From Pseudomonadota bacterium (GTDB lineage Bacteria; Pseudomonadota; Alphaproteobacteria; Rhizobiales; Amorphaceae), in assembly GCA_039034015.1 (NCBI GenBank), contig JBCCBM010000007.1, positions 91,289 through 155,288 on the forward strand: a DNA stretch of 64,000 nt. The letters are read 5' to 3'. The first letter of the stretch is position 1; the number at the start of each line of letters is the position of its first letter. Below are positions 6,171 through 16,822 of the stretch, piece after piece. A model generated the notes under the pieces. That model was not told the DNA's origin, did not search any database, and saw only the letters and a list, made by a program, of their open reading frames with translations. Position numbers and translations under genes: made by a program.

Positions 6171-7376
6171 TTAGGGCGTGCCGGCCCAGGCGGCGAGGGC
6201 GGCGCGCTCGTCCGCCGTCATCCCGGTGATGTTGCCAAGGGGCATGGCGTGGGTCTCCACCGACTGGGCGATGATCGCGCCCGCGTGCCGGCGCATCAGC
6301 TCGGGCGTGTGGAGCGCAACGCCGCCGGGTGCCGAGGAAAAGCCCTCAAACGTTGGCTCCGCCGCGTGGCACGACGCGCACCGGCGCTCCACAATTTCAA
6401 AGGCCAACGGGTCGAGGACGGCGTTAAAACTGCCGGCGGGCGTTGCGGCAACGGCCGCGGTATCGAGCGTCCCCACACGGCCGGTGGAGGCAAAAATCGT
6501 CATCGCGCCGGCAAGCACCACCGCGGCCGGCCACTGCCAGGCAATGCGAAGGCCGGACGCCCCCGTCTCATAGGTGTTGAACCAGTGGCGCACGATCGCG
6601 CCCAAAAACAGCGCCATTGCCACAATCGCCCACGCCTGCGGGTGTCCGAACGCTGCTGGATAGTGGTTCGACAGCATCAGGAAAATGACCGGCAGCGTCA
6701 GATAATTGTTGTGGGTGGAGCGCAGTTTGCCAATTTCGCCAAGGCGCCCGTCAGGCGTGCGGCCGGCCATCAAATCGCCCACCATTTTGCGCTGGTTGGG
6801 GATGATGATGAAAAAGACGTTCGCCGACATGATGGTCGCAATGATCGCGCCCGTCTGCAAAAACGCCGCCCGGCCGGAGAAAACCTCGCCATAAGCCCAC
6901 GCCGTCGCCGTGATCAGCACGAAGAGCAGCGCAAACAAAAGCTCCGGCCGTTTTGACAGCGGCGAACGGCACAAAAGGTCGTACACCACCCAGCCCACCG
7001 CGAGGCCGCCGGCCGACAGCGCAATCGCCTGCCAAGGGGCAAGGTCAACCTTGTCGGGCGCGATGAGGTAAAGCTCTGCGTTCCAATAATAGACGATCGC
7101 AAGGAGAAGCGCGCCCGATAGCCACGTCGCATAGCTTTCCCACTTGAACCAGTGGAGTTCACCCGGCATCTCTTTGGGCGCCACCAAGAACTTTTGCGAA
7201 TGGTAAAAGCCGCCGCCATGGACGGTCCAGTTTTCGCCCTTGATGGTGGGGTCCATGCCGGCGCGACGTTTGAGCGAGGCGTCCAGCCACATGAAGTAAA
7301 ACGAGGATCCGATCCACGAGATGGCCGCAACAACGTGCGCCCAGCGGACGAACAGGCTCAAAAACTCTTGCATCAT
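6171..7376 (-). CDS. puuD: urate hydroxylase PuuD (integral membrane, cytochrome c)
   Basis: RWAHVVAAISWIGSSFYF, VHGGGFY, LHWFKWE, RSTHNNYLTLPV, C-terminal CASCH heme motif. Confidence 0.9.
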   Translation of the reverse strand: MMQEFLSLFVRWAHVVAAISWIGSSFYFMWLDASLKRRAGMDPTIKGENWTVHGGGFYHSQKFLVAPKEMPGELHWFKWESYATWLSGALLLAIVYYWNAELYLIAPDKVDLAPWQAIALSAGGLAVGWVVYDLLCRSPLSKRPELLFALLFVLITATAWAYGEVFSGRAAFLQTGAIIATIMSANVFFIIIPNQRKMVGDLMAGRTPDGRLGEIGKLRSTHNNYLTLPVIFLMLSNHYPAAFGHPQAWAIVAMALFLGAIVRHWFNTYETGASGLRIAWQWPAAVVLAGAMTIFASTGRVGTLDTAAVAATPAGSFNAVLDPLAFEIVERRCASCHAAEPTFEGFSSAPGGVALHTPELMRRHAGAIIAQSVETHAMPLGNITGMTADERAALAAWAGTP

Positions 7377-7496
7377 TCACCCAGTTGCGACGCTTGCGCC
7401 GGGCCGCTGAGGCGGTAGCATCGCGGCCTTGGTCCAAAAGGGTGTAGCACGACTTATGCCGTTCCCGTCACCGCCCCCTGCCCGCCGCGCTCACCG

Positions 7497-8966
7497 ATGA
7501 ACCGCGACACGTTCGTCGAGCGCTACGGCGCGCTTTATGAGCACAGCCCCTGGGTGGCCGAGCGGGCGTGGGACGGGGGCGTCTCGCCCGGCGCGCCCCT
7601 TGCCCCCGTTCTGCGCCGCGTGGTGGAGCGGGCGGGGGAGGGGGCGCAACTGGCGCTCCTGCGCGCGCACCCGGACCTTGCCGGCCGCATTGCCCTCACC
7701 GATGCCTCCACCGAGGAGCAAAAGGGCGCCGGCCTCGACCAATGCACCCCAGAGGAGTTCGAGGAGTTTTCCCGCCTCAACACCGACTACACCGCGCGCT
7801 TCGGCTTCCCCTTCATTGTCGCCGTGAAGGGCCTCGACCGCGCCGGCATTCTAAAGCGCTTTCGCGCGCGGGTTGAAAACGCGCCGGCCACAGAGTTTCG
7901 CACCGCGCTGGATGAGGTGCATAAAATTGCAGGCTTTCGCCTCGCGGCCCTCACCGCACCCGCCCCCGTTGCGCGCGAACATGTGCCGGCGGCGGAGGTG
8001 GAGCGGCTGGCGACCTCCGCCCTTGCGCGCGCCGGGGCGGATGCGGTGAATGCGGCCGCGATCGCCCACAACATGGCGCTCGCGGAGCGCTGCGGCAGCG
8101 AGTCCCACGGTCTCTTTCGCCTTGCCGCAAGCTGCGGCGCGCTGCAAGACGGGTGGATCAACGGCTCGGCCCGCCCACGCATCACCCGCCAAGGCGCGAG
8201 CCTTGTGATGGTGGATGGTGATGGCGGGGCAGCGCCCGGCGCCTACGATCTTGCCCTCCCCGCCCTTGGCGAGGCGGCAAAGGCGGAAGGGGTGGCGGTG
8301 CTCTCGCTCACCAACACCGTGCACTTTGGCGCCATGTGGCCGGAGGTGGAGGTTTTGGCGCGGGAGGGCCTTGCCGCCTTTGCCGCCACCGCCAACGTGC
8401 CATATCTGGCGCCCCACGGTGGCACGCGGCCCTTTTTTGGCACCAACCCGCTGGCGTTCGCTTGGCCGACTGCCGAGGGGCCCATCGCGTTTGACTTTGC
8501 GACCTCCGCCATGGCGCGGGGGGACGTGATGCTGGCCGCCCGCGATGGCCGGGCCGTCGCCGAAGGGGTGGGCGTTGACGCCGAGGGCGCATCCACCACC
8601 GACCCCGAAGCGGTGCTCGCAGGCGCGCAGCTCCCCTTTGGGGCGCACAAAGGTTCGCTCATCGCCATGATGGTCGAGCTTTTGGCGGCGGGCCTGCTCG
8701 ATGCGCCCTTCAGCATTGAGACGCCGGCCGAACGGCGCACCCGCGGGATTGTGCGTGCGGGCGTTTTCGTGCTCGCCCTTTCGCCCGATGCCATTGGCGG
8801 GCCGGGTGCACGGGCGCGGGCGGACGCGTGGGTGGCGCGGCTTGGCGCCGAAGAGGGGGTGCGCCTGCCTGGTGTCCGTCGCCGGGCCCTTGCGAACACA
8901 CCCACCGTGGCGGTGGAGGCAACGCTCCTTCAGACAGTGCGCAAACTCGCCGGCGAGACAAACTGA
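7497..8966 (+). CDS. fusion of OHCU decarboxylase (UraD) and Ldh_2-family oxidoreductase
   Basis: The first ~150 aa carry LYEHSPWVAE, LLRAHPDLAG, STEEQKGAG and FGFPFIVAV. The remainder carries SHGLFRL, HFGA, GTNPLAF, DFATS and HKGS. Confidence 0.88.
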   Translation: MNRDTFVERYGALYEHSPWVAERAWDGGVSPGAPLAPVLRRVVERAGEGAQLALLRAHPDLAGRIALTDASTEEQKGAGLDQCTPEEFEEFSRLNTDYTARFGFPFIVAVKGLDRAGILKRFRARVENAPATEFRTALDEVHKIAGFRLAALTAPAPVAREHVPAAEVERLATSALARAGADAVNAAAIAHNMALAERCGSESHGLFRLAASCGALQDGWINGSARPRITRQGASLVMVDGDGGAAPGAYDLALPALGEAAKAEGVAVLSLTNTVHFGAMWPEVEVLAREGLAAFAATANVPYLAPHGGTRPFFGTNPLAFAWPTAEGPIAFDFATSAMARGDVMLAARDGRAVAEGVGVDAEGASTTDPEAVLAGAQLPFGAHKGSLIAMMVELLAAGLLDAPFSIETPAERRTRGIVRAGVFVLALSPDAIGGPGARARADAWVARLGAEEGVRLPGVRRRALANTPTVAVEATLLQTVRKLAGETN

Positions 8967-9839: not shown

Positions 9840-11417
9840 CTAGTCCCGCGGGGCGGCAATCCGGAGCGCGGGGCGGCTCTCAGTGTCCCGCGCGGCCTTA
9901 AAGGCTCGGATCTTGTCGGCGAGCGACAATTCCCGCGGTTCGGCAACGCGCACCACGTCTGGCGCGTCCATGAACCGCTCGGCAAGATCGCGGATGGTGG
10001 CCTTGAGCGCGGCCACCTCTTGCGGGTCGACCGTCATGCCGTGGCCCGCGCGCGCGGCCGCCAGCGCCTCCTCCAGCGCGGCGATTTTTTCCTTCGCGGC
10101 CCCATCGTCGGCGGCGGGCGCGCTGGCAAGGGCGGCCTCCTGGGCTTTGATGGCCTCATCCCGTTCGGCAAGGGCAGCGTCCCGCTCGGCGGCCATAGCG
10201 CGTTCGGCCTCGCGCGCGGCTTCCAGGGCGAGCGACACGTCGCCGTCCTCGCCCACGATGGCGTCTTCGGCAATTTCGGCGCGGCGCAACGAGTCGGCAA
10301 TCTTGCCCTGCTGGTTGCGCAGCGAGGTTTGCAGCTCCTCAATCTTTTGGAGCCGCAATTCGAGCAGCGCGTCGCGTTTTTCCACCTCCGCGCGGGCCTC
10401 TCGCTCGGTGCGCTCGGCGGCCTCCACGCGGGTTTTCATACCATCACGGTCGTAGGCGAGGCGGGAGAGGCTCTCGTTTGCGGTGCGCTCGCGCCCCTCG
10501 GCAGCGTCGAGCGCATCTTTGAGGCGGGCAATTTCGGCCTCGAGAGGCTCTGTGGCGTCGTCGTCAGTGCGCGCGGCAAGGGCATTGCGCAGCTCTTGGA
10601 TCTGGCCGTCCCGCTCTCGCACGGTGCGGGAGAGGAGCGCCTCGCGTTCGCGCAGGGCCTCCAGCTCGCGGGCGAGCGTGTCGCGGCCCTTCTCAATTTC
10701 GGTGACGTTGCCGACCTTTTCGGCCATTTGCGCCATCTCGCGGCGGAGGGCGTCGGCCACATTGACCTGGCGCGCAAGGTCTTCCAGCGCCTCGTCCCGC
10801 GCCTTGGTCAGCGCTTCCACGTCGCCTTGGCGGTTTTGCCGCTCGGCGGTGGCCTTGGAGAGTTTTGTCATGGTCTCCGAGAGCTCGCGCCGTAAATCGC
10901 TCAGCTCTTGGGACTTTGTTTCAAGCTCCTGGACCGCGCGGTCCCGCTCGCTCTGAAGCTTTGGGACGCCTTGGATGCGGGCCTTTTGCTCATCAAGATC
11001 CTGCGCGATGCGGGCGGTGCGGGCGCGCTCGGTCTGAAGGTCTTTTTCAAGGGCGGCGACGCGGCCTTCGTCAGCCTGGAGCTTTTGCTCGGCCGCCTTC
11101 AGCTTGAGCGTTGCGTCCATCTCACTTTGCAGGCGCTCCTGGGCCTCGGCGAGTTTGGTTTCCAGGGTTGCAATGTCCACCGCGTGGTTGGCGCGCAAGA
11201 CGTCGCGCTCAGCCTGGACGGCGGCAATCATCTGGGCGGTGTCGCGCCCGCTCCCTTTGCGAAGGCCGGCAAAGAGCCACAGAAGGGCGATCAGCAGGAG
11301 GCCGCCGCCAATCAACAAAACAGGAAGGTCGATGCCGTCGGGCAGGGTCATGGCGCTCACTCTCACAGGCTCCATCGGCGGCGCTGTGACGGGCGCCTGC
11401 GGGCCGACCTGCCTCAT
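9840..11417 (-). CDS. membrane-anchored long coiled-coil protein
   Basis: Single N-terminal TM followed by RK, about 400 aa of E/A/R/L heptads, C-terminal SLADKIRAF. The start may be 11351. Confidence 0.8.
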   Translation of the reverse strand: MRQVGPQAPVTAPPMEPVRVSAMTLPDGIDLPVLLIGGGLLLIALLWLFAGLRKGSGRDTAQMIAAVQAERDVLRANHAVDIATLETKLAEAQERLQSEMDATLKLKAAEQKLQADEGRVAALEKDLQTERARTARIAQDLDEQKARIQGVPKLQSERDRAVQELETKSQELSDLRRELSETMTKLSKATAERQNRQGDVEALTKARDEALEDLARQVNVADALRREMAQMAEKVGNVTEIEKGRDTLARELEALREREALLSRTVRERDGQIQELRNALAARTDDDATEPLEAEIARLKDALDAAEGRERTANESLSRLAYDRDGMKTRVEAAERTEREARAEVEKRDALLELRLQKIEELQTSLRNQQGKIADSLRRAEIAEDAIVGEDGDVSLALEAAREAERAMAAERDAALAERDEAIKAQEAALASAPAADDGAAKEKIAALEEALAAARAGHGMTVDPQEVAALKATIRDLAERFMDAPDVVRVAEPRELSLADKIRAFKAARDTESRPALRIAAPRD

Positions 11418-15261: not shown

Positions 15262-16323
15262 CTAATCAAACAGATCATCCGGGATATCACTCCCCACCGC
15301 CTTCAGGACGCGGGAGCGGTTGGTGATGAAGCGGACGATTTTGTCGCCGATGCCCTGCTCCACCTTCGGATTTTCAAACATCTCGATGAAGGCTTTGCCA
15401 TTCTGCGCAATCTCTTCACACTTGCCCTCGTTTTGGAGGCACCAATCAAACACCTCCTCAAGGTCGGCAAGGTCATACCGCACGGGGACATAGTGCACGT
15501 ATGGTCGAAGCATGTTTTCGCACGCCCACGTCATGATCGTGATGTGGGGCATGATGATGCAGGAGTTGGTGGCGAGCATCCATTTCAGGCCACTTGCGGT
15601 GTCGTTACCCTCCAGCGACAGAAGATAGCGAAATTTGACTTGTTCGCGGATGTCGATCCGCGGCGCAAAATAGTGCTCCCGCATGTGTTCGGCGCGATCG
15701 GGCGGGAGTTGCACGATTTTTGAGAACGCGATGTCCATGTCGCCGCGGTGTTTGATGCGGTCCATCAGTGCGGGGACATAGCTGCGCGACCCGAGGGGGC
15801 TCCCGGGTTTGATGCGAAATTCGCCCGTGGTGGCGCCGCGCCACATGAGGGTGGGTTCTTTGTCGGCGAAGGCGATGTCATGCTTTCGCGCCATGTACAC
15901 CGGCTTGAAATGGCGGATGAAATGGAGCTGCATCAGCGCGCTCAGCCCCGCCTCAAACGCGGGGCGCGACTTGCAGACCGAGGGGTAGGCGATGGTGTGG
16001 TGGTTGTCGCCGGGGCGCACCAGCATCGCCTTGTCGATCTCCTGCCGCTCCAGGGATTCAATCACCGGCTTCATGTAGTTGGTGAAGAAGATGTCGATGA
16101 ATTCGTCCCGCTCGTTCCGCAAGAGGTTTTTGCCCTGCGCAAAATAGGGGAGAATTTCGCGGAACTTTGCGTTGTCCATCCCCGCGCGGACGATGAAAAA
16201 CTGCTCGTTGCCCGAGATTTCAAACACGCCGCGGCGCATCTTGGTGAGATGGCCAAGGTAAAGCTTTTCGCGGTTGCCGGGGTTGAGGCCGGCGATGGGG
16301 TTGACGGGCTTTGGCGCGGACAT
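15262..16323 (-). CDS. glycosyltransferase family 90 (CAP10-like) protein
   Basis: [60 protein letters not shown]. Confidence 0.8.
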
Positions 16324-16330
16324 GGCGGGC

Positions 16331-16822
16331 TCAGTGGTCGGCGTGGAGCCATGCCTTGAGGAGGGCGGCCAGGCGGTTTGCGACCGTTTCAAGGTCGCGC
16401 CCGGCAACGCCGCCCCAGGGGTCAATGTCGCCATCGCCAGAGCGCTGCTCGCCGCTGATGCGGTGGAGGCGCCGGCCCGCCGTGTCGTTCACGTCAAAGA
16501 CGTAAAACACGGTGGAGTTGGTTTGGTCGGACACGGCGGTGATTGCCCCCTTCACCGTGAAAAGCGCCCGCCCGCCAGGCCGTTTCACGACGGTGAGCCC
16601 CTCTTCCTCCGCATTTTTCCAGATGCGGGACAAAAGGTCGTCCCCCGCATTGCCCGGCACGCCCTCAAAGGGGAGGAAGGCGAAGGTTGCCTTTTCCGGG
16701 TCAATGCCAGGGCCGCGAGGCTTGTCAAAATTGACTCCAACGTCCGCCGCAATGCCCGACACCGTGGGCGCCGCGCAGGCCGAGAGCGCCAATGCACACA
16801 AAAGGGCGCAAAGACGGATCAC
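16331..16822 (-). CDS. conserved lipoprotein
   Basis: The GTG start overlaps the upstream TGA (GTGA). Signal MIRLCALLCALALSAC with lipobox LSAC. Confidence 0.8.
   Translation of the reverse strand: MIRLCALLCALALSACAAPTVSGIAADVGVNFDKPRGPGIDPEKATFAFLPFEGVPGNAGDDLLSRIWKNAEEEGLTVVKRPGGRALFTVKGAITAVSDQTNSTVFYVFDVNDTAGRRLHRISGEQRSGDGDIDPWGGVAGRDLETVANRLAALLKAWLHADH

Follow-up and report, generated by a model that had tools for sequence, protein, structure and literature searches.

A single reading frame in the window, as we call the whole 64,000-nucleotide stretch of DNA analysed here, joins an OHCU decarboxylase (UraD) to an oxidoreductase of the Ldh_2 family, and this UraD-Ldh_2 fusion is real. 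Its genus-limited distribution, together with the single clade that its Ldh_2 halves form in a tree, indicates a genus marker with a single origin. The DpkA residues that are kept, the AllD residues that are absent and a set of fixed pocket columns suggest that the Ldh_2 half is a reductase of alpha-imino or alpha-oxo acids, of the NADP(H) type and with an altered pocket, and not AllD, the ureidoglycolate dehydrogenase. The reading that we favour, at a probability of roughly 0.45, is that this half has been recruited to reduce an alpha-imino (or alpha-oxo) acid derived from urate. The architecture is apparently undescribed; it is conserved, genus-specific and built from two known enzyme families. 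A literature search yielded nothing on UraD-Ldh_2 fusions or on Acuticoccus purine catabolism (most subscription journals and supplements lie outside the coverage of the search). In excerpt, a review of uricolytic enzymes from 2026 treats Urah-Urad fusions without containing the term 'Ldh' (PMC13751858), and the PuuD paper shows no UraD partner of the Ldh_2 type (PMC4562309).

The sequence-only reading had described one 489-aa frame divergent from puuD, and this description held. The frame is open, the linker and both motifs quoted are present in the translation, and the divergent gene carries Urate_ox_N (Table 1). Pfam places OHCU_decarbox at aa 1-150 (E 1.8e-42) and Ldh_2 at aa 164-465 (E 8.1e-76), and the UraD half lies well above the cut-offs of TIGR03164 (183 bits against 96) and PF09349 (146 against 24). 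The AlphaFold model of the fused protein is confident across both halves (mean pLDDT 91.7, pTM 0.81). From Arg148 to Leu176 the linker region spans exactly 29 aa in 32 of 40 family members and 27-31 aa in 39 of them, and the GC3 of the gene (0.79-0.83) is alike in the UraD and Ldh_2 halves. A complex prediction of the UraD half against an Ldh_2 dimer gave a score of 0.00 and no verdict. NCBI names for the fused proteins mention OHCU decarboxylase only, so the Ldh_2 domain is hidden in the annotation.

Table 1. Positions of the fused gene, its parts and its divergent neighbour in the window.
Feature	Position	Strand	Details and basis
Fused OHCU decarboxylase and DpkA-like Ldh_2 oxidoreductase	7497-8966	+	489 aa, one frame without internal stop
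UraD half, aa 1-152	7497-7952	+	Pfam, NCBIfam, alignment
Short Ala/Pro-rich linker, about aa 153-161	7953-7979	+	AlphaFold model, family alignment
Ldh_2 half, aa 162-489	7980-8963	+	Structure match, family alignment
puuD, membrane cytochrome c urate oxidase	6171-7376	-	Urate_ox_N, E 1.5e-128; CxxCH motif in translation
Divergent intergenic region between puuD and the fused gene, 120 bp	7377-7496		Comparison over 8 genomes

An assembly artefact or a read-through of two genes is ruled out by at least 39 further full-length two-domain clusters, by 14 more genomes of the genus with an intact frame and by a contig from run X1 that covers the entire gene with zero differences; the fusion is therefore not an assembly accident, and the stop or indel at the junction that would have counted against it is absent. 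The X1 contig by itself is not independent support because X1 may be the source sample. The absence of a ribosome-binding site at the junction, which had been offered as evidence, is weak evidence, since the start ATG of the fused gene also lacks a Shine-Dalgarno sequence.

In a protein search, at least 40 two-domain clusters including that of the window were found at 94-100% query coverage and 56-64% identity (best 120 of 461 matches). The named clusters are mostly Acuticoccus; one bears the label Stappia and includes A. yangtzensis as well, and Devosia is the label of one genome bin. In a family-wide genome search, 15 of the 17 genomes of this marine genus had an intact fusion. In one further genome (G013) each half of the fused gene has indels of one or two bases at scattered points, and another (G014, 92% complete) has no fused gene. 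The fusion was seen in none of four genomes from two other genera of the family and in none of 20 from other families of the order; far from being a common architecture, it is confined to one genus among the genomes searched. A profile search of 1.84 billion representatives returned one full-length fusion cluster in its best 150. No independent UraD-Ldh_2 fusion appeared among those 150 or the best 120 of 461 matches, nor, in the length class searched, among the 79 genome and 80 metagenome loci listed.

An Ldh_2 tree of 174 rows groups all 40 fused halves into a single clade (SH-aLRT 100, stem 0.68) within marine stand-alone proteins, with E. coli AllD and the two Ldh_2 paralogues of the window's genome far outside; the tree comes from a quick search with a midpoint root and omits every second stand-alone protein from the protein search. 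Three candidate stand-alone members of the fused clade were set aside: P0121 was taken as a shorter gene call because a 497-aa fusion from the species of the same name falls into its 90% cluster, P0128 is part of a frameshifted gene, and P0041 is a fragment that looks chimeric. One sequence of 420 aa (P0042) lacks the middle of its UraD half, including the HPDL and SxxEQ motifs, and has an intact Ldh_2 half.

Both halves are under purifying selection. Among 91 genome pairs, the six closest give a dN/dS of 0.11-0.28 for the Ldh_2 half; the medians over all 91 pairs are 0.32 for the Ldh_2 half and 0.20 for the UraD half (14 genomes, G007 and G013 omitted, with dS likely saturated for distant pairs). 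Mean pairwise identity among members is 60% in the Ldh_2 half and 68% in the UraD half.

The N-terminal half very probably acts after PuuD and UraH and converts OHCU to (S)-allantoin by decarboxylation, with its stereospecificity predicted. In an alignment to 2o70, His58 (7668-7670) and Glu74 (7716-7718), both invariant in 40 of 40 members, correspond to zebrafish His67 and Glu87, which we take to be the catalytic residues. Like the UraD proteins of TIGR03164 (2o8i, Atu2327; 2o70, zebrafish), this half has intact HPDL and SxxEQ motifs, and its gene adjoins puuD, xdh, uraH or guaD; unlike them, the fused protein continues at its C-terminal end into an oxidoreductase of some 330 aa. In each genome that carries it, the fused protein is the only UraD or the best one, and the upstream steps (Xdh, urate oxidase and UraH) are all encoded in the window's genome. 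The earlier remark that no uraH lies in the window is true of the window but carries no weight as a clue, because uraH sits elsewhere in the genome, directly before xdhABC on contig C8, with puuD and the fusion on C7.

For the Ldh_2 half, the sequence-only reading had leaned towards DpkA, and structure agrees. The best solved sequence match is P. syringae DpkA (1wtj, E 2e-62, against 1e-26 for AllD), which is also the top Foldseek match (38% identity, rmsd 2.0); the DpkA affinity rests on these sequence and fold matches, as the Ldh_2 tree contained no DpkA sequence. The half falls under every named Ldh_2 equivalog cut-off in NCBIfam, AllD included. The carboxylate site of DpkA is made up of Arg58, Thr166 and the 192-193 backbone, with His54 as the acid (PMC10127515, in excerpt), and all have kept equivalents in Arg208, Thr316, Arg341-Gly342 and His204. 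DpkA selects NADPH through Arg314-Arg315 (PMC3527362, in excerpt), matched here by Arg461-Arg462 (8877-8882; 35/40 and 40/40, respectively). Equivalents of DpkA Ser53, His126 and Gly193 are likewise present, and His204, Arg208, His276, Thr316, Asp333, Arg341, Gly342, Lys385 and Arg462 are invariant across all 40 fused halves.

The differences from DpkA lie in the pocket and in the setting. Ser150-Met151-Thr152-Cys153 of DpkA become Asn-Phe-Pro-Tyr in the fused family and His192 becomes Arg; the fused half is joined to UraD in purine clusters, whereas DpkA lies with D-lysine or hydroxyproline genes. The ring pocket is formed by Phe117, Met141 and Pro262 in P. putida numbering (PMC6775277, in excerpt), positions at which the family has Phe (25/40), Phe (31/40) and Pro (39/40) and the window's copy Phe, Val and Val. 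In the alignment there is no obvious ureido-binding pair in this pocket, and its residues stay hydrophobic. Tyr250 (40/40), Asn300 (33/40), Tyr303 (39/40) and Asp407 (33/40) are among the changes fixed in the fused halves and rare in 115 stand-alone relatives, whose acidic loop is replaced in the fused halves. Of all members, the copy in the window has diverged most (tip 0.82), with the changes Asp199Cys, Tyr212Ser and Pro419Val.

The suggestion that the fusion joins UraD to an AllD-type step did not survive this comparison. Arg48, Ser140 and Asp141 are AllD-specific and Asp308-Gln309 select NAD (PMC3527362, in excerpt). In the fused half Ser140-Asp141 are replaced by Asn300-Val301 in the window's copy (Asn-Phe in the family) and Asp308-Gln309 by Arg-Arg, and the scores are 124 bits against a cut-off of 496 for TIGR03175 and 126 against 356 for PRK15025. 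AllD Arg48 and His116 are kept as Arg208 and His276, a retention that is not diagnostic because both are common to the aligned Ldh_2 rows. The likeness to E. coli AllD (4fjs, 1xrh) thus comprises the Ldh_2 fold, these two residues and the purine setting; the differences are an identity of 26%, the missing Ser140-Asp141 pair, an NADP-type rather than NAD-type signature and a distant place in the tree. A ComC-type sulfolactate dehydrogenase was also rejected (146 bits against the NF040650 cut-off of 500; the genome's C23 paralogue lies on a separate branch). On that contig (L073:2333-8927; G000:C23:10332-16926), a TRAP transporter, HisD-like and two more dehydrogenases, a UxaA-like pair and a second Ldh_2 gene form what we take to resemble a dihydroxypropanesulfonate/sulfolactate cluster with a ComC-like enzyme.

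In all 14 loci with sufficient flank, a purine gene lies within about 8 kb of the fusion (puuD, xdhABC, uraH, or guanine or adenine deaminase, in varying arrangement), a neighbourhood that the UraD half alone explains. No conserved operator or motif was found in the 120-bp spacer between puuD and the fusion across 8 genomes. The nearest stand-alone Ldh_2 relatives have sarcosine oxidase, betaine transport, carnitine and hydroxyproline genes as neighbours. Among the loci listed, uraD occurs in the fetched flank of 3 of 77 genome and 1 of 76 metagenome loci of such relatives, in SAR116-type loci, where it is an independent gene on the other strand, some 5 kb distant; the SAR116-type Ldh_2 is not sister to the fused clade in the tree. 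Deaminases beside stand-alone relatives were rejected as a purine link, being tRNA adenosine deaminase-like by sequence and context (judged by eye), as was an adenine deaminase in one locus (L200) with a methylamine-type context. A recurring marine operon (L105, L112, L115, L137, L141, L142, L144, L201, L203 and L205) ends with a stand-alone Ldh_2 gene, preceded in order by a membrane-dipeptidase-like gene, a 570-aa gene and a 210-aa gene, these three having no NCBIfam match at 1e-25. At two loci (L034:7017-8141 and L096:7993-9117), a second, unrelated Ldh_2 gene lies tail-to-tail with the fused gene, with 2-3 bases between them.

Judged by gene content, the genus is mostly without recognised allantoate-degrading enzymes. 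Allantoicase was found in none of its 17 genomes (the same search found G035 and no control genome), nor was the uraD-linked type of allantoate amidohydrolase (G037 query, E<=1e-70); the ureidoglycine-hydrolase cupin was found in three and a ureidoglycolate lyase-like gene in 10. The window's genome, which has PuuE on contig C29 as well as urease and bhcABCD, gave no match to allantoicase, the cupin or ureidoglycolate lyase. Of the 20 genomes from other families, nine bear UraD, and each of these has an allantoate enzyme (cupin in four, allantoicase in one, amidohydrolase in four), and in five of the nine it directly follows uraD or is fused to it, the slot that the reductase holds here. The 2-7 other M20 amidohydrolases in each genus genome could act on allantoate. 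A stretch with allB, cupin and xdh genes in one genome (L192; G015:C3:3000-20000) lies amid ORFs that look foreign for the genus; it may be contamination or transfer, in which case the cupin count falls from three to two of 17.

Because only five of the 17 genomes, G014 among them, have a canonical PuuE allantoinase that scores above cut-off, many members may simply stop at allantoin. PuuE-like genes of seven other genomes of the genus form a separate clade in a tree. Allantoin cross-feeding has been inferred among marine bacteria (PMC11698098, in excerpt), so stopping at allantoin is a real option. An AllB/hydantoinase-like gene scores at least 335 bits in 14 of 17 genomes, with four above the cut-off of 358. 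A beta-ureidopropionase-like carbamoylase and urease are each present in five of five genomes tested, and an AtzH/HpxZ-like gene in three of the five, as an orphan in the window's genome. Such carbamoylases are broad, with N-carbamoylglycine among the assayed substrates (PMC10952681, in excerpt). The genome without the fused gene (G014) also lacks PuuD and true XdhB.

If the reductase was recruited into purine breakdown, the fused gene would encode a two-enzyme protein of purine catabolism, whose DpkA-type reductase would have been acquired once, in the ancestor of the genus, and would be active, probably using NADPH. Retention of the carboxylate site suggests a substrate with an alpha-carboxy group, for which chemical reasoning offers two candidates. 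The fused half might reduce an acyl-imine, formed from allantoate by loss of urea or from ureidoglycolate by loss of water, to hydantoate (N-carbamoylglycine); a carbamoylase would then yield glycine, CO2 and NH3, and the urea would pass to urease. Alternatively, it might salvage a by-product by reducing alloxanate, the non-enzymatic decay product of OHCU, via a five-membered cyclic imine. The available excerpts describe non-enzymatic decay of the OHCU-stage intermediate to urea and alloxanic acid (PMC13751858), reduction of glyoxylate-amine imines by DpkA in vitro (PMC6775277) and reduction of 2-oxo acids by the same enzyme (PMC10127515), all of which support recruitment.

Also in favour are the persistence of an intact fusion through most of the genus with low reductase-half dN/dS in the closest pairs, the retention of the DpkA carboxylate-binding and catalytic residues together with the long stem and fixed pocket changes, and the allantoate-enzyme gap of the genus when all nine UraD genomes of other families have such an enzyme. 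Every other UraD fusion partner found is a purine enzyme, urease and the carbamoylase are in place in the genomes tested, and the fusion was lost together with PuuD and true XdhB in G014 (one event, in a 92%-complete genome). Counting against recruitment, the purine context is owed to the UraD half and the nearest stand-alone relatives are not purine-linked; the ring pocket is hydrophobic; canonical PuuE is patchy and M20 amidohydrolases might serve for allantoate; P0042 pairs a gutted UraD with an intact reductase; and the window's copy is the most diverged.

We consider it unlikely, if worth stating, that the genus has gone further and swapped the hydrolytic allantoate step for an NADPH-dependent reductive one, in which the fused domain would produce hydantoate, or hydantoin-5-carboxylate from the alloxanate imine. 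Were this so, purine carbon would exit as glycine and not glyoxylate, through a general hydantoinase and carbamoylase; aerobic purine catabolism would gain a new branch, and DpkA-type reductases a natural substrate class new to them. Missing steps of purine catabolism have repeatedly been supplied by tracing fusions and gene gaps, as with PuuD, and the coincidence of a conserved fusion with a genus-wide gap in recognised allantoate enzymes allows a small and direct test for a reductive step. DpkA-type enzymes also serve as biocatalysts for N-alkyl amino acids, which makes a variant with a changed pocket of practical interest.

It is nearly as likely as recruitment, instead, that adjacent genes fused and were fixed without any purine link, the half keeping an ancestral NADPH-dependent reduction of pyrroline-2-carboxylate or piperideine-2-carboxylate from hydroxyproline, D-proline, D-lysine or betaine catabolism. 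Its sister genes do lie among betaine, sarcosine and hydroxyproline genes, one of them (L164) directly after a trans-3-hydroxyproline dehydratase gene, and Ldh_2 members beside such dehydratases reduce the proline ketimine, pyrroline-2-carboxylate (PMC4113996 and PMC3958920, in excerpt). The ring pocket stays hydrophobic; the long stem and fixed pocket changes count against this reading. A trans-3-hydroxyproline dehydratase occurs in G000 (543 bits, just below the cut-off of 550), G006, G011 and G005 (contig C35) with no reductase among the ORFs called nearby, and the fused half is the sole candidate in G011 because that genome has no OCD-family gene and no other DpkA-like gene; however, 5 of 13 intact-fusion genomes, three of them 97-98% complete, lack a proline-racemase-family (dehydratase) gene, and in G004 the hydroxyproline cluster contains an Ldh_2 gene of its own, additional to the fusion. 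P0042 retains a reductase half without a working UraD, and the SAR116-type loci show that chance can place uraD and Ldh_2 within about 5 kb of each other; yet G014 did not retain the half, and neither the best 120 of 461 matches nor the best 150 of 1.84 billion representatives included a split form of the fused clade. DpkA is promiscuous, so recruitment and an ancestral activity could both hold. A plain pyrroline-2-carboxylate reductase would make this a lineage-specific fusion of unrelated enzymes, of modest interest.

That the half has converged on oxidising (S)-ureidoglycolate to oxalurate as AllD does, using NADP+, is very improbable. The shared fold with its kept Arg and His, the lack of a ureidoglycolate lyase match in the window's genome and the AtzH/HpxZ-like gene in three of five genomes would suit such a role, set against the lost Ser140-Asp141 and Asp308-Gln309, the low identity and TIGR03175 score, an orphan HpxZ-like gene in the window's genome and a genus most of which lacks a recognised ureidoglycolate-making enzyme. 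Very improbable, too, is a non-catalytic scaffold that dimerises or stabilises UraD and no longer needs turnover, since the somewhat faster evolution of the reductase half and the several family residues missing from the window's copy must be squared with His204, Arg208, His276, Thr316, Asp333, Lys385 and Arg462 staying invariant at 55-65% identity. A glyoxylate reductase role is not favoured because the genome's bhcABCD would handle glyoxylate.

The sequence-only reading knew UraD fusions with PuuE, and these exist, but PuuE is not the sole partner: UraD is also fused to UraH (allantoin synthase, 5z5m), to an amidohydrolase (PRK13799), to allantoicase (PRK13797) and to a ureidoglycine-hydrolase cupin (G029). 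The present protein resembles these in carrying a second enzyme in one chain, often for a non-consecutive step. It differs in that their partners are known hydrolytic purine enzymes, whereas the partner here is an oxidoreductase of the NAD(P)H kind whose clade has no other link with purines. The cupin fusion (L060:146-1495; G029:C4) is one 449-aa frame of UraD and a ureidoglycine-hydrolase/allantoicase-type cupin, followed by a ureidoglycolate lyase gene.

Several further loci are worth recording. Canonical-clade PuuE lies in a housekeeping context (mazG-like, hflX, hfq) in the window's genome (L071:9932-10813; G000:C29:26931-27812) and at L085, and is retained in G014 despite the missing urate pathway. 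The separate PuuE-like clade (L078, L079, L089, L075, L087 and L090) lies with a ureidoglycolate-lyase-like gene and ABC/TRAP transporters, away from purine genes. A sister-genus genome (G018, 89% complete; L176 and L177) has puuD and true xdhB with no uraD match, and in G023 a stand-alone uraD is followed on its own strand by the gene for an FAD-dependent DAO-family oxidoreductase that matches nothing in NCBIfam at 1e-60 (L046:8708-9892). The window's genome encodes a complete bhcABCD beta-hydroxyaspartate cycle, all four genes above NCBIfam cut-offs (L289:178-4562; G000:C11:58677-63061), and photosynthetic reaction-centre-like genes (L074; G000:C27:40038-43999), presumably pufL, pufM and puhA from their motifs. 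Within the window, a 525-aa coiled-coil protein that has a membrane segment in its N-terminal part and matches no Pfam family is encoded beside eipA and a ctrA-like regulator (9840-11417, minus strand), and a glycosyltransferase family 90 gene between prs and another gene (15262-16434, minus strand) has a less Ala/Gly-rich sequence than its neighbours.
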